Part shown: positions 179-8,086 of the stretch, one piece after another
Layout of the letters: each line of letters begins with the position of its first letter
Position numbering within the stretch: position 1 is the first letter of the stretch
Virus record (IMG/VR): IMGVR_UViG_3300028413_000003
Span: 1 to 40,464 of that record
DNA: 40,464 nucleotides
Reading direction: 5' to 3' (one strand)
Source: a virus
Lineage: Duplodnaviria > Heunggongvirae > Uroviricota > Caudoviricetes
Program-made: the position numbers and the translations under genes
Notes under the pieces: model-generated
Database searches by the model: none
Told to the model about the DNA's origin: nothing
The model's input: only the letters and a program-made list of their open reading frames with translations

Positions 179-1771
179 ATGGCAATAATTCAGATCTCAA
201 AGATTCAGCACAGACGCGGAAGAGCAGAGGGTATAGCATTGCCACAACTTGCGTCAGGTGAAATTGGGTGGGCAATCGATACACAAGAACTATATATCGG
301 TAATGGTAGTGTTAGCGAAGGTGCTCCGGCTGTTGGCAATACACGGATACTTACCGCAAGTACCGACATATTTAAACTAGCAGAGCAATACACTTACAAG
401 CCGCAGAGTAATTTTTGGAATGGTATGCCATTTGCAAGAAGCCTACAAAGCAAGCTAGATGACAAGGCAAATATTTTTGATTTCGGTGCAACTGGTGACG
501 GCACAGATCAAACAACTGCCATTCAAAGTGCAATTGATAAGCTTTATAAGAATGCTGCTGTATCCAACAGGGTTATACTTTGGATACCTGCTGGCAACTA
601 TACCATTACTTCACCTCTTGTAATTCCTCCGTATACCACACTCCGAGGCGCAGGCAAAGGCAAGACCGTGATACTAGCAGATAATTGTGATCTATTTACA
701 ACAACGCACTACGACCCATCTGATCCAAATGCACCGTCGCCTACTTCAAATACTCAAGCAAGATACATTGAAATATCCGAAATGAGTTTAGTAGTCAACT
801 CTGTTGATCATAAAGCAATGGTACTAAATTCTGTAAAACACAGTGTATTTAAAAATATACGCATTAACGGCGTGTTTCCTGAAAACAAAAACTTCCTCAC
901 TGCTGAATCAATCTATGGCGCTCACAGTGCAATTGAGTTGAATTCTTCAAATAACACAGTCATTTGTCAAAACAATGTATTTGATAATATAGAGATTGAC
1001 AGTTTCTATTATGGAGTGTACAGTGATTATGACACAATGCACAACAGTTTTTCGTTGTGTAGTTTTTATCTATTAAGCAATGCATTTAGATTTGGTAAGA
1101 ATACCAACATTGGTGCCATTGCTATGAAGTTTGGGCCAAAGTTTAATACCATTGAAAATTCTTACTTTGACAGAATTGACAAGGAAGCAATACGTCTTGA
1201 TTACGGAGATTACAATACAAGCAGACAAAACAGGTTCTTTAATGTTGGCAACTTTGGCGGACCCGAAGGACTAGATGCTGTGGCAATCATTGACTTCTCT
1301 TCTCATACAAATGTAGAGGATGGAGATTATTTTGAAAGATCCGATGCCTTGTCAACCAACACTGGTGTTTCATACGTGCCAGAGGTATCTGGTAGAGTCT
1401 TCTTCAAAGGGGCTTACTTGAACACAACCAGCATCGGAACTTTGCCAACCGATACTGAAATATTACAGTTCCCAGTTGTTGAGGGCACTATGTTTATAGA
1501 TTATGTTTACACCGAACGCACCGGAAGCACCGTAAATGTGTTAAGAGAAGGCACGATTGAAATTGTATGTGCTGCTGATGCAGATACACCAGAGATTATG
1601 ATAAACGACGAATTCAACTTCATTGGGGATGAATTGTTAGTGAATGCATTGAGTTTTGATGCTGGGTATACTGTTGACAACACAATAGTCACAGTTAACC
1701 TATTGGCCAAGAACACCAGGACTGTGGACACAGACAGTTTCCTTTACAATTTAAGAGTTAAAGCTAATTAA
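179..1771 (+). CDS. Virion structural/tail-fibre-like protein with a pectate-lyase-like beta-helix
   Basis: N-terminal MAIIQISKIQHRRG...LASGEIGWAIDTQELYIGNG resembles phage fibre attachment domains; DFGATGDG..DQTTAIQSAI..WIPAGNY is a pectate_lyase_3-type start. Confidence 0.6.
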   Translation: MAIIQISKIQHRRGRAEGIALPQLASGEIGWAIDTQELYIGNGSVSEGAPAVGNTRILTASTDIFKLAEQYTYKPQSNFWNGMPFARSLQSKLDDKANIFDFGATGDGTDQTTAIQSAIDKLYKNAAVSNRVILWIPAGNYTITSPLVIPPYTTLRGAGKGKTVILADNCDLFTTTHYDPSDPNAPSPTSNTQARYIEISEMSLVVNSVDHKAMVLNSVKHSVFKNIRINGVFPENKNFLTAESIYGAHSAIELNSSNNTVICQNNVFDNIEIDSFYYGVYSDYDTMHNSFSLCSFYLLSNAFRFGKNTNIGAIAMKFGPKFNTIENSYFDRIDKEAIRLDYGDYNTSRQNRFFNVGNFGGPEGLDAVAIIDFSSHTNVEDGDYFERSDALSTNTGVSYVPEVSGRVFFKGAYLNTTSIGTLPTDTEILQFPVVEGTMFIDYVYTERTGSTVNVLREGTIEIVCAADADTPEIMINDEFNFIGDELLVNALSFDAGYTVDNTIVTVNLLAKNTRTVDTDSFLYNLRVKAN

Positions 1772-2196
1772 TGTTTGAAAAAGATTACGTTGACCGTCTT
1801 CGTGAATGGTCAGCTTTTAGAAGTACGCTGGAGACATCGGCGTATCCTATTCAGGACGCCGTTGACTTCTACAATACTGCACCGCTGGTCGGCATATCTT
1901 GTGATCCGTATGCCGACAAGTTATGGCCAAACGCATGGGAACTGGTTTACGAAAATGTATACTGCGAGTTTTCCATTATTCTGGGAATATGCTACACTTT
2001 GCAGTTAACTAATCGCTTTTCGGAATCAGTTTTTGAGATATATATCTGTGCAGATAGAGCAAAGTCGGAGATAAAATATCTACTGTATGTTGACGACATG
2101 GTAATTGGTTACCATGCAGATTGTGCAGTAGACAGACAACAAATACCTGTGCATATCACAGTTGAAAAACAATTTACTCCACAAAAACTACAATAA
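1771..2196 (+). CDS. Hypothetical phage protein
   Basis: 141-aa ORF translationally coupled (TAATG) to the upstream gene. Confidence 0.6.
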   Translation: MFEKDYVDRLREWSAFRSTLETSAYPIQDAVDFYNTAPLVGISCDPYADKLWPNAWELVYENVYCEFSIILGICYTLQLTNRFSESVFEIYICADRAKSEIKYLLYVDDMVIGYHADCAVDRQQIPVHITVEKQFTPQKLQ

Positions 2197-2242
2197 ATAC
2201 CTAGCTGTTTTACAGTTACCGTACACATTTAAAGGAAAAAGA

Positions 2243-4306
2243 ATGATTCAAGTCACTAAGAGGAGTGGTTCGTTGGAGCCACTGGACATCGAAAAGTTGC
2301 ACAAAGTTGCATTTTACGCATGCGAAGGCATAACAGGAGTTAGTCCAAGCGAAGTTGAAATTAAAAGCAAGCTGGAGTTTTTCAATGGCATCAAAAGCAA
2401 AGAAATACAAGAAACATTGATCAAAGCAGCAGCAGATCTGATCACAGAAGAAACGCCAAACTATCAATATGTTGGAGGAAGACTCATCAACTACGGGTTG
2501 CGAAAAGAAGTATACGGCGGGTTTGATCCTTTTCATATTAAGAAATTGGTGGACTTGAACACCGCCCGCGGCTACTATGATCCAGAATTAAAAGATACTT
2601 ACACCAACGACGAATGGGATAAAATAGACAGTTTTATCAAACACGACCGTGACGAACAGTTAACTTATGTCGCAATGGAGCAGCTTAGAGGCAAGTACTT
2701 GGTGCAGAACAGAGTCACTGGAGAAATCTTTGAAACCCCACAAATGTGTTATGCATTGATTGCTGCTACCTTGTTCTCGTCGTATCCAAAAGAAACTCGA
2801 TTAACGTGGATTAAAGAATACTACGACGCAATCAGCCTCCACGACATCAGTCTTCCTACGCCAGTTATGGCAGGTGTGCGCACACCACAACGTCAATTCA
2901 GTAGTTGTGTGCTTATTGAAACAGATGACAGCCTTGACAGCATCAGCGCTACTTCTGCGTCGATTGTCAAGTATGTGAGTCAAAAAGCAGGCATCGGCAT
3001 TGGCGCAGGGAACATCCGCGCCATTAACTCGCCAATACGCAAAGGCGATGCATATCACACTGGTATCATTCCATTCTACAAGCATTTCCAGTCAGCAGTT
3101 AAAAGTTGTTGTCTAACTCCGGATACAATTGTTGAAATAATTAACGAAGACGGGCTAGAAACAAAAAAAATCCGCATTGCAGATCTTACTACTGGAATGA
3201 AAATTAAATCCTACGAAGACGGCAAGATTGTATACCGAAAAGTTATTAACAAATGGGATACGCTGGTAACAGAAGATCAGCAGGTTAGGCTGGAATTTAC
3301 AAACGGAACAGTGATAAATTGTAGTATAAATCATCCAATTATGATTCTAGACAACAATGTCGTAACACAAAAGTATCCTCAGGAACTTACAGAATACAAC
3401 AATATTATTTCAGAAAATGGCACTGTATATCTATATTCGATTACAGTCGGTCAACAAAATCCAACAGGATACGTTGACATTACAGTGGAAGACACCAATA
3501 CGTTTTTTGCAAGTTCGTTGATGTCTGACTCAATGGTGTTAACTCACAACAGTCAAGGTGGTGTACGCGGCGGCGCCGCTACTATCTATTATCCAATATG
3601 GCATCTAGAAGCAGAAGAATTGCTGGTGTTGAAAAACAACAAAGGAACTGAAGAAAACCGTATCCGTCACATGGACTACGGAGTACAGTTCAACAAGCTG
3701 ATGTACGAAAGATTAATCACAGGCGGCAACATAACACTATTCTCACCCAGCGACGTACCCGGGTTGTATGAAGCATTTTTTGCAGACCAAGACAAGTTCC
3801 GCGAACTATATGAAAAAGCAGAACGCACTACAAAACTACGCAAGAAAACTGTTAAAGCAAGCGAACTATTCAGTAAGTTTATGGAAGAGCGCAAGTCCAC
3901 AGGTAGAATCTATCTGCAGAATGTTGACAATGCAAACGACCATGGAAGTTTTATTCCGGAGTTTGCTCCTATCCGCCAGAGTAACTTATGTCTAACAGGC
4001 GACACTAAGATTGAAGTAATATTCAATAATGAAAAATTAATTATTAATCTCGACGAAATCGGAACGTTAATGGTTCAGGACGAAGATCTGTTAGTTAAAT
4101 CTTACAATATACTTGATAATAAAACAGAGTATAAAAAGGTTGAAGCATTTGCAAAGACCAACCCGGATGCAGAAGTTATTAGTATCTTTGACGAAGATTC
4201 CGGAAAGACTATAGAATGCACACCTGAGCATAAAATTTATACATTGAACCGAGGGTATGTAGAAGCGCAAGAATTAACGGAAACTGACAGACTTTTAATA
4301 TCGTAA
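2243..4306 (+). CDS. nrdA: Class Ia RNR alpha subunit, fragment a (ATP cone, first redox Cys, cis intein, split-intein N part)
   Basis: MIQVTKRSG ATP cone, TPQRQFSSCVL, SQGGVRGGAA, IRQSNL; start moved to ATG 2243 after AAGGA. Confidence 0.95.
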   Translation: MIQVTKRSGSLEPLDIEKLHKVAFYACEGITGVSPSEVEIKSKLEFFNGIKSKEIQETLIKAAADLITEETPNYQYVGGRLINYGLRKEVYGGFDPFHIKKLVDLNTARGYYDPELKDTYTNDEWDKIDSFIKHDRDEQLTYVAMEQLRGKYLVQNRVTGEIFETPQMCYALIAATLFSSYPKETRLTWIKEYYDAISLHDISLPTPVMAGVRTPQRQFSSCVLIETDDSLDSISATSASIVKYVSQKAGIGIGAGNIRAINSPIRKGDAYHTGIIPFYKHFQSAVKSCCLTPDTIVEIINEDGLETKKIRIADLTTGMKIKSYEDGKIVYRKVINKWDTLVTEDQQVRLEFTNGTVINCSINHPIMILDNNVVTQKYPQELTEYNNIISENGTVYLYSITVGQQNPTGYVDITVEDTNTFFASSLMSDSMVLTHNSQGGVRGGAATIYYPIWHLEAEELLVLKNNKGTEENRIRHMDYGVQFNKLMYERLITGGNITLFSPSDVPGLYEAFFADQDKFRELYEKAERTTKLRKKTVKASELFSKFMEERKSTGRIYLQNVDNANDHGSFIPEFAPIRQSNLCLTGDTKIEVIFNNEKLIINLDEIGTLMVQDEDLLVKSYNILDNKTEYKKVEAFAKTNPDAEVISIFDEDSGKTIECTPEHKIYTLNRGYVEAQELTETDRLLIS
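3110..3550 (+). mobile_element. Contiguous mini-intein (147 aa, no endonuclease) in nrdA
   Basis: KSC|CLTPD...VLTHN|SQGG; removal restores the conserved KSCSQGG. Confidence 0.9.
3989..4303 (+). mobile_element. Split intein 1, N part (105 aa)
   Basis: QSNL|CLTGDTKI...CTPEHKIYTLNRGYVEA..L..TD.LLIS-stop; block A and block B (TxxH) present, no block G. Confidence 0.9.
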
Positions 4307-4370
4307 CTAAATTAATCTCCGTATCGAATATAAACAAAAAATCTCCAATATACTCAAGGAAAAAAAATAA

Positions 4371-4670
4371 ATGCTAAAAATTACAAGACAAAATAAAAGA
4401 GAAGCAGTGTACGATATCACAGTGTTGGGCAATGAAAATTTCTTTGCAAACGGAATACTAGTACACAATTGTGCCGAAATTACTTTACCCACCAAGCCGC
4501 TGAAAGATCTCAATGACGGCGCTCACCGACGTAAAATAAGAATTCCCAAAAACAAATATAATGAATATTTAGAATATAAAAAGTCAGTAGATGGCATTTT
4601 ACGATTAGACAAAGAGAAATTTAATGGCAAAAAAGTACATAAGGTAGCAAGGAATAACAATGGAAAATAA
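4371..4670 (+). CDS. nrdA: NrdA fragment b: split intein 1 C part (33 aa), CAEITLPTKPLKDLND with the catalytic Cys/Glu, and a basic tail
   Basis: VYDITV..NENFFANGILVHN|CAEI; AAGGA upstream. Confidence 0.9.
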   Translation: MLKITRQNKREAVYDITVLGNENFFANGILVHNCAEITLPTKPLKDLNDGAHRRKIRIPKNKYNEYLEYKKSVDGILRLDKEKFNGKKVHKVARNNNGK

Positions 4671-5613
4671 TTGGTTATATGAAGTAGTAGAAAACGAAAA
4701 CAATATTCGAGAAGATGAAGAATACATATATGTAGACGAAATGGTAGAAGACTATGACGGTGCTGCTATCAGCTTGTGTACGCTCTCAGCAATTAATTGG
4801 GGCAATATTAAGACTCCTGCTGATTTTGAAAGAGTTTGTCGCCTTGCAGTACGTGGACTGGACGCACTACTAAGCTATCAACATTATCCAATTCTAGCTG
4901 CACAACTATCAACCGACAAGCGTCGACCACTTGGAGTTGGTATTATCAACTTTGCATATTGGCTTGCTAAAAACAATCTCAATTACCAAGACATTGACAG
5001 CGACGGACTTGCATTAATTGACGAATGGGCAGAAGCCTGGAGTTTCTATCTCATCAAAGCCAGCGCAGACCTAGCAACAGAATTTGGCGCGCCTACCGGA
5101 AACATGGAAACTAAGTACGGACACGGTATTACCCCTAACCAGACATACAAGAAAGATTTGGATCAACTAATTCCACATGTTGAACGTATGGACTGGCAAG
5201 GACTGAGAACGCAGCTTAAAGACACGGGCATAAGAAACTCTACACTAATGGCCCTTATGCCCGCCGAATGTCAAAGCTTGGCAAATGAAATGAGGCTAAA
5301 AGATGGAACAGTTGTAACGCTCGCCGAAGTTATTCAAGATTACGGAAAAATTGATATTAACACTGTTCACGAAAAATTCATGATAGGTCAGAGATTTCCA
5401 TTCCTTAAACCAGTTGAATTGTCAGATAGTATAGCATATGAATGTTATTATAATGGCCCTCAATCTGTTACAGAAATTGAATTAGAAGACGGATCAGTAT
5501 ATAAATTTACTAATAATCACAAACTTCTTGTATTACGAAATAACATAAAAGAATGGATTGAAGTTAAAGATTTATTAGAAGATGACGATATTGTTAGCGT
5601 TAATGATAAATGA
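4660..5613 (+). CDS. nrdA: NrdA fragment c: acidic tail, catalytic core (SLCTLSAINWG, RPLGVG, RNSTLMALMPAE) and split intein 2 N part (5269-5610)
   Basis: RNR core motifs followed by CQSLANE...FTNNHKLLV...DLLEDDDIV-stop; AAGGA at 4649-4653. Confidence 0.9.
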   Translation: MENNWLYEVVENENNIREDEEYIYVDEMVEDYDGAAISLCTLSAINWGNIKTPADFERVCRLAVRGLDALLSYQHYPILAAQLSTDKRRPLGVGIINFAYWLAKNNLNYQDIDSDGLALIDEWAEAWSFYLIKASADLATEFGAPTGNMETKYGHGITPNQTYKKDLDQLIPHVERMDWQGLRTQLKDTGIRNSTLMALMPAECQSLANEMRLKDGTVVTLAEVIQDYGKIDINTVHEKFMIGQRFPFLKPVELSDSIAYECYYNGPQSVTEIELEDGSVYKFTNNHKLLVLRNNIKEWIEVKDLLEDDDIVSVNDK

Positions 5614-5766
5614 CTAGATCATAAATTTTCAATATCTCGAGGATTTATTGAAGGAATTAATCCTGCGCTATTAGGAAGCTTGCAAAATTTAGAATTTATT
5701 CCCTGGGAAGATAACGTGTCAAAACAAGGAAAATGTTCAATTACAAAAGAGGAATTATTAAAATGA
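5614..5766 (+). pseudogene. C-terminal remnant of an HNH-type homing endonuclease between the halves of split intein 2
   Basis: In frame after TGA 5611-5613: LDHKFSISRGFIEGINPALLGSLQNLEFIPWEDNVSKQGKCSITKEELLK. Confidence 0.65.
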
Positions 5767-6314
5767 AAATTAAACGTATTACAAGAGACGCAGGAACAGA
5801 ACACACTTGGGATGTTTCAACTGACAACGAAACTTATACCTTGTCAAATGGATGCATTAGTCATAACACTAGTGCGCAAATTGCAAATGCAACAAATGGC
5901 ATCGAGCCGCCGCGTGCATTTATTAGTGTAAAGCAAAGCAAGCACGGAGTACTAAAGCAAGTAGTACCGGAATACAAGCGCCTTAAAAACAAGTACGATC
6001 TGCTCTGGACACAAAAGTCGCCCGAAGGATATCTAAAAATTATGTCTGTGCTACAAAAGTACATAGACCAAGGCATCAGTGTTAACACCAGCTACAATCC
6101 TGAGTTTTACGAAGATGAAAAGATTCCAATGAGTGTAATGCTGCAACACATGGTGATGTTCTACAAATATGGCGGCAAGCAGCTTTATTATTTCCAAACA
6201 AACGATGGTCAAGGAGAACTTGACGTTAACAAGATGCTAGGTGAAGAAGACTTGCCAGAACTCGAGCAAGTTGATGCAGATGACGACTCAGATTGCGAAT
6301 CCTGCAAGCTTTGA
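5763..6314 (+). CDS. nrdA: NrdA fragment d: split intein 2 C part (35 aa) plus C-terminal extein with the CxxC swinging arm
   Basis: TWDVST...SHN|TSAQIANATNGIEPPR, GGKQLYY, CESCKL; AGAGGA RBS, ATGA overlap. Confidence 0.92.
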   Translation: MKIKRITRDAGTEHTWDVSTDNETYTLSNGCISHNTSAQIANATNGIEPPRAFISVKQSKHGVLKQVVPEYKRLKNKYDLLWTQKSPEGYLKIMSVLQKYIDQGISVNTSYNPEFYEDEKIPMSVMLQHMVMFYKYGGKQLYYFQTNDGQGELDVNKMLGEEDLPELEQVDADDDSDCESCKL

Positions 6315-6331
6315 TCCACACTATATAACCA

Positions 6332-6360
6332 TTGACACGCCCAACGGGGCGTGTTACACT
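6332..6360 (+). promoter_or_regulatory. sigma70-type promoter for nrdB with a palindromic spacer
   Basis: TTGACA-N17-TACACT; ACACGCCC/GGGCGTGT inverted repeat at 6335-6354. Confidence 0.6.
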
Positions 6361-6384
6361 CGTAGATACAACAGAGGATATTCA

Positions 6385-7515
6385 ATGAGCGTTTTTGACA
6401 TAAACAACAAAGTCGACCACACTAAAGTAACAGCATTTTTAGACCCAAGTGGTGGCCCAACTATACAACGATACGACACACTAAAATACAAACAATTTGA
6501 GCAGTTAACTGAAAAACAGCTTGGATTCTTTTGGAGACCAGAAGAAATTGATGTCACACAAGATTCAAAAGACTTCAAAGATTTAACTGACCACGAACAG
6601 CACATCTTTACTAGCAATCTCAAGCGCCAAATTCTTTTGGACAGTGTGCAAGGGCGCGCACCTATGGAAGCATTTAGCCCAATTGTAAGCTTGCCGGAGA
6701 TTGAAAACTGGATCACCACATGGACGTTCTCTGAAACAATTCACAGCCGCAGCTACACGCACATCATACGCAATATCTACACAAATCCTAGTAAGATCTT
6801 TGACGAGTTGCTGGACATCAAAGAGATTGTCGAATGCGCAGAAGACATCTCCAAGTATTATGATAATTTGATTGAAATGTCTTCGTATTACAATCTTCTA
6901 GGCGTGGGCACGCATACAGTCAACGGCAAAAAAGTTGTTGTGGACTTGTACGAACTTAAGAAGCTGTTGTGGCTAACACTAATGAGTGTGAACATCCTCG
7001 AAGGCGTAAGATTTTACGTTAGCTTTGCATGCAGCTGGGCATTTGCTGAAATCAAGAAGATGGACGGCAATGCCCAAATCATCAAGCTTATTGCACGTGA
7101 TGAAAACTTGCACCTTGCCTCGACCCAGATGTTGCTGAAAATCCTTAAGAAAGACGATCCAGACTTTGCAAAAATTGCAGAAGAAACAGAAGACGAATGT
7201 GTGCAAATGTTTGTTGATGCAGTTGATCAAGAAAAAGCATGGGCCGATTATCTGTTCAAGGATGGATCAATGCTGGGTATCAATAGAGAGCTGCTGGACA
7301 ACTATATTGAGTGGATTTGTGCCAAGCGTATGCAAAACGTATATTTGCCGTGTCCATACAAAACCCCGAGAGATAATCCATTACCGTGGACACAAAAGTG
7401 GATCAGTGGGGCAGACGTACAAGTGGCTCCACAAGAAACACAAATTACCAGTTATGTCAACGGCGGCACCAAGCGCGATGTTGACGGTGACACTTTCAAA
7501 GGCCTGAGCTTGTGA
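6385..7515 (+). CDS. nrdB: Class Ia RNR beta subunit
   Basis: FFWRPEEID, ETIHSRSYT, EGVRFYVSF, RDENLH, VAPQE; AGAGGA before ATG 6385. Confidence 0.97.
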   Translation: MSVFDINNKVDHTKVTAFLDPSGGPTIQRYDTLKYKQFEQLTEKQLGFFWRPEEIDVTQDSKDFKDLTDHEQHIFTSNLKRQILLDSVQGRAPMEAFSPIVSLPEIENWITTWTFSETIHSRSYTHIIRNIYTNPSKIFDELLDIKEIVECAEDISKYYDNLIEMSSYYNLLGVGTHTVNGKKVVVDLYELKKLLWLTLMSVNILEGVRFYVSFACSWAFAEIKKMDGNAQIIKLIARDENLHLASTQMLLKILKKDDPDFAKIAEETEDECVQMFVDAVDQEKAWADYLFKDGSMLGINRELLDNYIEWICAKRMQNVYLPCPYKTPRDNPLPWTQKWISGADVQVAPQETQITSYVNGGTKRDVDGDTFKGLSL

Positions 7516-7769
7516 ACACTGTTATATGGACCAAAGACAGTTGTGATTTTTGCGTTAAAGCAAAATCTATGCTGACAAGCAAAGGCATCGAGTTCGAAGA
7601 GAGAAATCTTTCTAGCAATGTATGGAATAAGGAGCAGCTATTAGAAGCTGCTCCTACTGCAAAAACAGTGCCACAAATATGGCTTTACGGAAAGTACGTA
7701 GGCGGCCACGACAACCTATGTAGGTATTTTGACGACCACAATATGTGGACAGGCGATTGCGAACTTTAA
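7512..7769 (+). CDS. Glutaredoxin (CDFC)
   Basis: CxxC, TVPQIW..GKYVGG. Confidence 0.9.
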   Translation: MNTVIWTKDSCDFCVKAKSMLTSKGIEFEERNLSSNVWNKEQLLEAAPTAKTVPQIWLYGKYVGGHDNLCRYFDDHNMWTGDCEL

Positions 7770-7795
7770 CAACATAAATTATAAAGGAAATATAA

Positions 7796-8086
7796 ATGAT
7801 TATTGAAATCCCAGTATCTTCGGGCGATATTGTTACTATTAAGATGACCACAGGCGACGAAATTATTGCTCGCTTATTAGAGGTAAGCGAGACACAGTAC
7901 ATTGTTGCCAAGCCGCAAGCATTGATGGCAACTGAAAACGGCATGGGCCTTGGACCATTTGCATTCACAGTCAGTCCCGAAACAAAGATACCAATTAATC
8001 GAGCTACTGTTGTGTTTTGTGTCAAAACAGACCCCGACACAGCCAAAACTTACATCGGAAGCACTAGTTCGCTGGCGGCGATATAA
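7796..8086 (+). CDS. Hypothetical protein, possibly Sm-like fold
   Basis: GDIVTIKMTTGDEIIARL pattern; AAGGA RBS. Confidence 0.6.
   Translation: MIIEIPVSSGDIVTIKMTTGDEIIARLLEVSETQYIVAKPQALMATENGMGLGPFAFTVSPETKIPINRATVVFCVKTDPDTAKTYIGSTSSLAAI

Follow-up and report, generated by a model that had tools for sequence, protein, structure and literature searches.

How can a single enzyme be built when its gene is broken into four open reading frames (ORFs)? The question is raised by nrdA, the gene of the large subunit of class Ia ribonucleotide reductase (RNR), in a viral DNA stretch of 40,464 nucleotides (the window), which is the first 40 kb of the 251-kb IMG/VR record IMGVR_UViG_3300028413_000003 (linear, with an estimated completeness of ~71%). 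The source is an uncultured T4-like giant phage. At positions 2243-6314, four ORFs on the plus strand, named a to d in their order, together make up a complete class Ia NrdA. Three inteins interrupt the gene, one of them a contiguous mini-intein and two split ones whose splicing motifs are complete; in a fourth place it is broken without any intein. With a probability of about 0.8, we read the locus as a working class Ia nrdA that was invaded four times by elements driven by homing endonucleases and has since lost every endonuclease gene.

Four ORFs carry one complete NrdA

The ORFs occupy positions 2243-4306 (a, 687 aa), 4371-4670 (b, 99 aa), 4660-5613 (c, 317 aa) and 5733 or 5763-6314 (d). 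The borders of the segments (Table 1) were set by alignment to E. coli NrdA, whose residue numbering is used for catalytic positions, and to uninterrupted relatives. The relatives come from scans of IMG/VR and of metagenomes of the Joint Genome Institute (JGI), about 160 loci designated here by L and a number, and many of them have an uninterrupted nrdA of ~765 aa. Residues 1-289 and 437-582 of a align to E. coli residues 4-292 and 293-438, and residues 31-203 of c to residues 454-623. Pfam families found in a were ATP-cone, Ribonuc_red_lgN and Ribonuc_red_lgC, and the ATG of a at 2243 is preceded by the Shine-Dalgarno sequence AAAGGAAA. The short extein of b fits the continuous NLCAEI.LPTKPL..ISLCTL of the uninterrupted relatives as well as E. 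coli residues 439-441.

The original prediction, made from the letters of the sequence, proposed four ORFs with one cis-splicing, two trans-splicing and one non-covalent junction. Its coordinates, strand and anatomy proved right and recur on four further contigs; the anatomy and the relatives support the four junctions. Alignment confirmed that the catalytic motifs are spread over the ORFs, with FSSCV on a, CAEI on b, SLCTL on c and CESC on d. The proposed junction peptides KSCSQGG, QSNLCAEI and MPAETSAQ follow from the sequence, and relatives without the interruptions read KSCSQGG (at the site of the cis intein), NLCAEI and MPAETSAQ (across the c-d junction, without a gap) continuously. Two small corrections had to be made: the N-terminal half of split intein 1 begins at residue 583, and for d the second ATG (5763) is the most likely start, as it has the better Shine-Dalgarno sequence (GAGGA) and as gene calls made independently on sister contigs yield 183 aa.

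RNA splicing of the pieces was rejected, as Rfam gave no group I or group II intron match in 2000-6600 at E <= 1. A promoter and terminator scan of the nrdA region gave matches at the level of shuffled sequences, and joint versus separate transcription of the pieces was not shown by it.

Table 1. Segments of the fractured nrdA and its partner genes (window coordinates; IntN and IntC, N- and C-terminal intein halves).
Feature	Position	Strand	Description
Fragment a, extein 1	2243..3109	+	ATP-cone, all-alpha domain, barrel start, Cys225 equivalent (FSSCV); ends KSC
Cis-splicing mini-intein (147 aa), a 290-436	3110..3550	+	Cys1 (Cys290), block B SINH, ends THN, +1 Ser437 = E. coli S293
Fragment a, extein 2 (146 aa)	3551..3988	+	E. 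coli 293-438; ends RQSNL, including Asn437 equivalent
IntN1 (105 aa), a 583-687	3989..4306	+	Starts CLTGDT at Cys583, block B TPEH, then stop; Pfam Intein_splicing
a-b spacer (64 nt)	4307..4370	+	Putative scar of deleted HNH-type homing-endonuclease gene; carries ribosome-binding site of b
IntC1 (33 aa), b 1-33	4371..4469	+	Ends ILVHN; Pfam Intein_splicing positions 125-155
Fragment b, extein 3 (about 17-18 aa)	4470..4523	+	+1 Cys = Cys439 equivalent, then Glu441 equivalent, LPTKPL
Basic C-terminal tail of b (48 aa)	4524..4670	+	16 K/R, 5 D/E; isoelectric point (pI) 10.4; last ~7 codons from deleted endonuclease gene
Acidic N-terminal head of c (34 aa)	4660..4761	+	13 D/E, 1 R; pI 4.05; ATG overlaps b stop (ATGGAAAATAA)
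Fragment c, extein 4 (169 aa)	4762..5268	+	Cys462 equivalent (SLCTL); ends MPAE; Pfam Ribonuc_red_lgC 214-397
IntN2 (114 aa), c 204-317	5269..5613	+	Starts CQSLANE at Cys204, block B TNNH, then stop
c-d spacer (149 nt)	5614..5762	+	Putative 3' remnant of deleted ~335-aa endonuclease-like gene (HNH-like by eye); carries ribosome-binding site of d
IntC2 (35 aa from ATG at 5763)	5763..5867	+	Ends CISHN; independent gene calls start at 5763
Fragment d, extein 5 (148 aa)	5868..6314	+	+1 Thr (TSAQIANATNGIEPP), YY radical-transfer pair, C-terminal CESC; Pfam Ribonuc_red_lgC 390-523
nrdB (6385-7515) and glutaredoxin gene (7512-7769)	6385..7769	+	Partner genes directly 3' of nrdA

The breaks recur on independent contigs

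The window is a metagenome-assembled viral contig, and false breaks might be made by an error of assembly or binning. The exact protein sequence of c was found on nine contigs, four of which (L162-L165) were compared with the window across the region. These four represent four samples, two sources and two assemblers (JGI 3300028364, 3300028363 and 3300028402, and ERZ27315564 of the European Nucleotide Archive). They share the whole 4,072-bp region at 100, 99.83, 99.90 and 97.2% identity, and all three junction strings are identical to the letter. Furthermore, each break carries conserved in-frame intein halves or tails, which an artefact would not create. An assembly artefact is thus effectively refuted and excluded for practical purposes, its probability being close to nil. 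A search of IMG/VR for the exact b/c junction string gave no match besides the window's own record.

The contig with 97.2% identity is a recombinant in which a, b and c are the same as in the window, whereas 35 of the 148 extein residues of d differ; all four ORFs nevertheless stay open. The contig (L165:2784-5659, JGI 3300028402) departs from window positions 5763-7515 right after IntC2; therefore, the recombination boundary lies at the edge of the intein. L165 also has a 377-aa GIY-YIG/NUMOD3 ORF between nrdB and the glutaredoxin gene, an ORF that is absent from the window.

One contiguous and two split inteins

We number the intein sites from 1 to 3 along the gene. The insertion in a at site 1 (E. 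coli C292/S293) has the sequence features of a class 1 intein: Cys1, block B, the HN end, the +1 Ser and an in-frame position within a conserved motif of the host protein. An AlphaFold2 model of it had a predicted local distance difference test score (pLDDT) of 80.5, and the top 25 Foldseek matches in the PDB all belonged to the HINT superfamily and were mostly inteins, with template modelling scores of 0.75-0.79 (TvoVMA 0.75, Pab PolII 0.79). The cis intein is thus predicted to fold as a HINT domain. At the same site, homologues were found in the Shewanella phages Thanatos-1/2, among others. An inserted gene splits this intein in L085 in an atypical way, after ~24 residues, and the contiguous intein of the window may be either the ancestor or a healed copy. 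The L085 locus (1362-7833, IMGVR_UViG_3300025425_001250) has an N-half of ~24 aa and a C-half of ~133 aa, which are cut apart by a 293-aa ORF (DUF7487 / phrog_3339).

Split intein 1 (site 2) lies before Cys439. We found CLTGDT and TPEH in its N-half and VYDITV..NFFANG and VHN in its C-half, followed by the +1 Cys; the flanking exteins rejoin as QSNL-CAEI, i.e. E. coli 435-441. The nearest solved relative of IntN1 was the NrdJ-1 split intein (PDB 8ubs, E = 1.4e-13). The split inteins NrdA-1 to -7 of the Global Ocean Sampling data sit 'directly N-terminal to the thiyl radical' Cys (Dassa 2009, PMC2677866), and split intein 1 occupies this published site. The likeness to phage NrdA-type inteins of fractured genes, which the original prediction had proposed, is supported by the site and by the match to NrdJ-1, an intein of a fractured gene.

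Split intein 2 (site 3) lies before the Thr of ETSAQ and has Cys204, TNNH, WDVST, SHN and the +1 Thr; its exteins rejoin as MPAE-TSAQ. The Klebsiella phage KP13-7 has homologous halves at the same site (E = 2e-15). Identity between pairs 1 and 2 was 23% for the N-halves and 38% for the C-halves. As the original prediction suggested, the two pairs would be mutually orthogonal; this is reasonable to expect, since b and c would be lost if the halves mis-paired. The start of IntN2 (CQSLANE, 5269-5290) is loosely like the start of the C-extein (TSAQIAN, 5868-5888), which may be due to chance, and in tblastn searches the extein matches of intein-less relatives run ~25 residues into IntN2 (rows matching residues 37-231).

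A break with charged ends and no intein

Between the strands of Cys439 and Cys462 nrdA is split without an intein, and both ORFs have their own translation start. Fragment b ends after LPTKPLKDLNDG and the tail; c has its own Shine-Dalgarno sequence (AAGGA) and ATG, with SLCTL at residue 40. The net charge is +11 for the tail and -12 for the head.

Such a break is known from Aeromonas phage Aeh1, whose nrdA-a / mobE / nrdA-b are 'genes in pieces' (Friedrich et al. 2007; Crona et al. 2010, PMC3045599). The (NrdA-a/NrdA-b)2-NrdB2 complex of Aeh1 is fully active although its large subunit is split between Cys439 and Cys462, and the charged tails are essential for assembly and activity (PMC3045599). 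The window and Aeh1 share the loop in which the break occurs, a basic C-terminal tail (pI 10.4 in both), an acidic head (pI 3.8 in Aeh1 and 4.05 in the window) and a downstream start that overlaps the preceding stop. The predicted chains of 501 and 351 aa compare with 473 and 323 aa in Aeh1. On the other hand, the gap in Aeh1 holds mobE (HNH), whereas the window has no endonuclease gene in the gap and the gap gene of its relatives belongs to PHROG 314. Also unlike in Aeh1, the N-terminal chain of the window would first have to be built by cis- and trans-splicing.

The same basic tail closes the N-terminal fragment in L005, L007, L137, L138 and L142, where no intein is present at the break, and the acidic head is conserved in L005, L006, L007, L009, L137, L138, L142, L098 and L141. 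Similarity to the window clade is significant for the tails of L098, L140 and L146, which score above all 2000 shuffles, and for the head of L141; over these comparisons, 0-2 of 2000 shuffled sequences reach the same score. Tail and head thus form a module that is a family of its own and occurs with different gap genes. In the 'phages' collection of cultured phages, none had the tail or head of the window.

One may ask whether tail and head are a dead third split intein of which only docking halves are left. The idea was discussed by Crona et al. (PMC3045599), and the complementary charges are indeed like those of split-intein halves. But alignments of the tail or head only, compared by hhalign with IntN and IntC alignments of the same loci, gave a probability of <1% in every pairing. 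Pfam gives no HINT signal in either part, and the two together have only ~82 aa, without Cys1, TxxH and HN motifs. We regard a dead intein as unlikely.

Complex predictions of tail versus head with two alignments (A1/A2) gave interaction prediction scores from aligned errors (ipSAE) of 0.30 and 0.19 (mark 0.32); these runs had no controls and are evidence neither way. The 3-kb contig L166 (45-1757, JGI 3300042952, protein P0031) has the same endonuclease-less b/c scar as the window, with small indels that fuse tail and head (..KFNGKK-GTQGTT-MENDWLYEIV..). The result is a continuous NrdA with an insert of ~85 aa, in which, on a single contig, a sequencing error is possible. Since P0031 fuses tail and head in frame through the same scar, it suggests that these ends lie close together in the assembled enzyme. 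An AlphaFold2 model of P0031 was poor (mean pLDDT 50, insert 24-57), and its strand-helix/two-strand pattern was not used.

Probable scars of three endonuclease genes

The relatives show each of the four interruptions separately, mostly with a free-standing endonuclease-like gene in the gap. A survey covered 133 loci; it is a biased sample with errors in the automatic site calls (e.g. L005 at site 3), and no frequencies were drawn from it. A free-standing endonuclease gene between split-intein halves is absent from the window and was found in L085, L135, L006, L007, L008 and L141. For example, L085 and L135 have three split inteins and three endonuclease-like genes in one nrdA, with no tail/head break. 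As in published fractured genes, inverted repeats lie in these two loci, just 5' of where two of the inserted ORFs start.

Comparison with these loci identifies what is left in the gaps of the window. The a-b spacer consists of the first 17 nt past the stop of a and the last ~50 nt of a 311-aa ORF of L085, with 886 nt deleted; window positions 4315-4517 align to this ORF end and IntC1. For the 311-aa ORF we found a match to PHROG 655 'homing endonuclease' (2.5e-21) and weak ones to HNH families of Pfam. Similarly, L006, L007 and L008 have a ~335-aa ORF between IntN2 and IntC2. The last ~150 nt of this gap ORF in L085, L006, L007 and L008 match the c-d spacer at 99% identity, and 861 nt are deleted in the window. 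The full ~335-aa ORF has no Pfam match and matches phrog_5104 (function not known). Both spacers are therefore best read as 3' ends of deleted endonuclease genes, not as neutral DNA. In L009 (1769-1781), the endonuclease gene between IntN2 and IntC2 was lost independently, with ~10 nt left compared to 149 nt in the window.

The b/c break has its counterpart in L005, L007 and L009, which have no intein at sites 1 and 2. In these loci the basic tail is followed by a ~260-aa ORF and then by a c-type gene with the acidic head. The ~260-aa ORF matches PHROG 314 'homing endonuclease' (1.7e-18), is not similar to mobE, is GIY-YIG-like by eye, and its stop overlaps the ATG of the c-type gene. In the window, the last ~7 codons of the gap gene continue the tail in frame, and the overlap of the gap gene's stop with the start of c (ATGGAAAATAA, as in L007) is kept. 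In loci of the L098 type, L140, L141 and L146, a split intein at site 2 is combined with a tail/head break, thus giving a b-type mini-protein; L141 and L098 have an endonuclease gene in both kinds of gap.

Each stub that was kept supplies the following fragment with its ribosome-binding site, which explains why the stubs survive and argues against an error as the origin of the frame change between b and c. The latter point matters, as b and c could be made as one polypeptide, either by a +1 frameshift at the AAA-TAA end of b or through an unnoticed 1-nt error, so that there would be three products and no non-covalent junction. Fragment c is in the +1 frame of b with an 11-nt overlap, the loss of one A would join the two, and P0031 is one ORF across the same kind of scar with small indels. 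Conversely, the junction string does not differ on any of the four further contigs, which were made with two assemblers; c comes with an AAGGA and an ATG of its own; and the same ATGGAAAATAA overlap of stop and start joins the endonuclease gene to c in L007. Moreover, mobE and nrdA-b of Aeh1 overlap alike, yet the chains there are separate and active, and no frameshift-stimulating signal was identified. We consider a joint b-c product highly improbable and continue with b and c as separate chains.

Mosaic identity and purifying selection

DNA identity was computed segment by segment against L085, L135, L005 and L006. The exteins were 72-80% identical, and tail and head 76-79%. The intein DNA was far closer: 100% for IntN1 (312/312, in comparison with L085/L135, where the exteins are 74-78% identical), 93% for IntC1 (L085; allelic IntC sequences are present in >15 relatives), 99% for IntN2 (L085, L135, L005 and L006), 99% for the c-d spacer and 100% for IntC2 (L085, L005, L006 and L007). 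Because the intein DNA is 93-100% identical where the exteins are only 72-80% identical, the split inteins and their endonuclease genes must have spread recently between diverged phages. The tail/head break diverged along with the host gene. Near-identical intein DNA between phages with 20-28% diverged host genes documents recent intein traffic in an aquatic phage population.

Ratios of nonsynonymous to synonymous substitution rates (dN/dS) were computed against more distant alleles. We obtained 0.12 for the cis intein (versus L129, 87% nucleotide identity), 0.12-0.17 for IntN2, 0.04 for IntC2 (versus L008), 0.05-0.06 for the exteins and 0.17-0.35 for the head. All measured segments are under purifying selection, the pattern of a functional gene that depends on splicing and not of a pseudogene.

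These values bear on the alternative that nrdA is decaying, with mobile elements destroying the gene, the pieces no longer joined and the phage using the host RNR. Intein-bearing nrdA genes of Campylobacter phages were read as degenerating (PMC3653736), all three endonuclease genes are already deleted in the window, and a host RNR could compensate. A decaying gene, however, would not be expected to look as this one does: the exteins and intein halves are all free of frameshifts and stops, the catalytic residues and splicing motifs are all intact, and dN/dS is 0.04-0.17 in the intein halves and as low as given above in the exteins. The arrangement is also preserved on four contigs, including the recombinant strain, and intact nrdB and glutaredoxin genes are adjacent. 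We therefore regard decay as very unlikely and retain the working, repeatedly invaded nrdA as the preferred reading.

Proposed maturation and history

In the maturation that we propose, the cis intein would first excise from a, joining KSC to SQGG. IntN1 of a would then pair with IntC1 of b, so that QSNL is trans-spliced to CAEI, with the thiyl-radical Cys439 serving as the +1 nucleophile; the product would be a 501-aa chain ending in the basic tail. Likewise, IntN2 of c would pair with IntC2 of d and join MPAE to TSAQ, giving a 351-aa chain that starts with the acidic head. Finally, the 501-aa and 351-aa chains would associate non-covalently, like NrdA-a and NrdA-b of Aeh1, and rebuild the barrel. 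Cys225 and Cys439 would be on one chain and Cys462 and the C-terminal CxxC on the other, and the enzyme would work with NrdB and glutaredoxin.

As to the history, three separate deletions would have removed the endonuclease genes, each keeping the 3' end with the Shine-Dalgarno sequence (for c, also the overlapping start). With the endonuclease genes deleted, the split inteins would no longer home and would be kept only because the enzyme needs them.

Several observations weigh against a working enzyme assembled in this way. Splicing and NrdA activity are predictions, here and in the near relatives. IntN2 scores 21.8 bits with Pfam Intein_splicing (E = 1.8e-4), below the cut-off of 35.8; the best PDB sequence match of intein 2 is the DnaE intein at a weak E of 0.02, and the N-terminus CQSLANE is atypical. 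The tail and head of Aeh1 have no significant similarity to those of the window clade, as 224/2000 and 874/2000 shuffles score as well, and what supports the parallel with Aeh1 is therefore position and charge, not homology. (A homology of the Aeh1 tails to the window-clade tails, suggested by eye from LYEV.E and EEY..V, was dropped because it is within the range of composition-preserving shuffles.) Tail and head are fused in one frame in L166, i.e. separate chains are not obligatory in this lineage. A second RNR large subunit, or nrdD, was not found within the 251-kb record, and since the record is only ~71% complete, a further RNR elsewhere in the genome, or the use of the host RNR, may be conceivable.

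A joint claim that goes further is tentative, with the odds somewhat against it. It holds that one enzyme uses two orthogonal natural split pairs next to each other and, in addition, a 'clasp' of basic tail and acidic head that is conserved and portable. Pair 2, with its +1 Thr, would belong to a family without a close solved relative. The clasp would be a small folded module, used in several phage lineages with different endonucleases, tolerated as a fused internal insert in one relative, and not an intein relic.

Comparison with known systems

Fractured genes with split inteins were described from ocean metagenomes, with NrdA-1 to -7, NrdJ-1/2, gp41-1 and others (Dassa et al. 2009, PMC2677866). 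As in those, a phage gene of DNA metabolism is broken here by a split intein, with the halves on consecutive ORFs of the same strand, and relatives of the window keep a free-standing endonuclease gene with a hairpin before its start. Unlike those loci, which have one fracture each with the endonuclease gene inside, the window combines two split inteins, a cis intein and an intein-less break, and its endonuclease genes are deleted. Split intein 2 and the cis intein are at sites other than the NrdA site of Dassa et al.

A cultured case is the jumbo phage KP13-7 (OP617745). Its nrdA also has four coding pieces, and its split inteins occupy the same two sites as in the window, one preceding Cys439 and the other preceding Thr (ETSSQ in KP13-7). 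In contrast to the window, three endonuclease-like ORFs are kept in the gaps and there is no tail/head break. We observed an HNH ORF, a GIY-YIG ORF and a 323-aa HNH-like ORF between its nrdA pieces (L167:378-5908, OP617745 30877-36407). At the first break (KSCSQG stop ... MWHLE) ~12 conserved residues are missing and there is no intein; this break may be an intron. The region is annotated as nrdA_1 and nrdA_2, with the other pieces mostly hypothetical proteins. In a literature search of partial coverage, which is weak evidence, we found no paper on a natural gene with more than one split intein; none was found on the nrdA locus of KP13-7 either.

In kind, then, the locus is known: it combines fractured genes with split inteins and the tail-assisted RNR in pieces of Aeh1. 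What is new is the higher fragmentation, one gene being interrupted four times by breaks of three mechanistic types, and the endonuclease-free state with intact intein halves under selection. The original prediction had called the gene an extreme case; this is only relative, given the three split inteins and three endonuclease genes of L085/L135 and the four coding pieces of KP13-7.

Should the tentative joint claim on split pairs and clasp hold, the locus would offer a natural blueprint of how one protein can be put together from four chains via three joining chemistries. The locus shows how far the gene of an essential enzyme can fragment and still stay under selection, with the active site drawn from four translation products. 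For the 99-aa b, the only apparent job would be to deliver about 17 residues, including the radical cysteine, and a docking tail. Compared with its relatives, the locus would capture the end of the homing cycle, when the endonuclease genes are gone and the split inteins and tails cannot be lost without killing the enzyme. For protein engineering, two co-evolved split pairs, presumably not cross-reacting, and a candidate non-covalent clasp could be of interest.

Neighbouring genes

Pfam assigned Ribonuc_red_sm and Glutaredoxin to the partner genes (on the identical contigs). On the 5' side of nrdA, a 530-aa ORF at 179-1771 has Mtd_N and pectate-lyase-like Pfam matches (on identical sister contigs) and is likely to encode a tail-fibre or receptor-binding protein. 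Next to nrdA in all close relatives is the conserved 141-aa ORF at 1771-2196, which matches no family.

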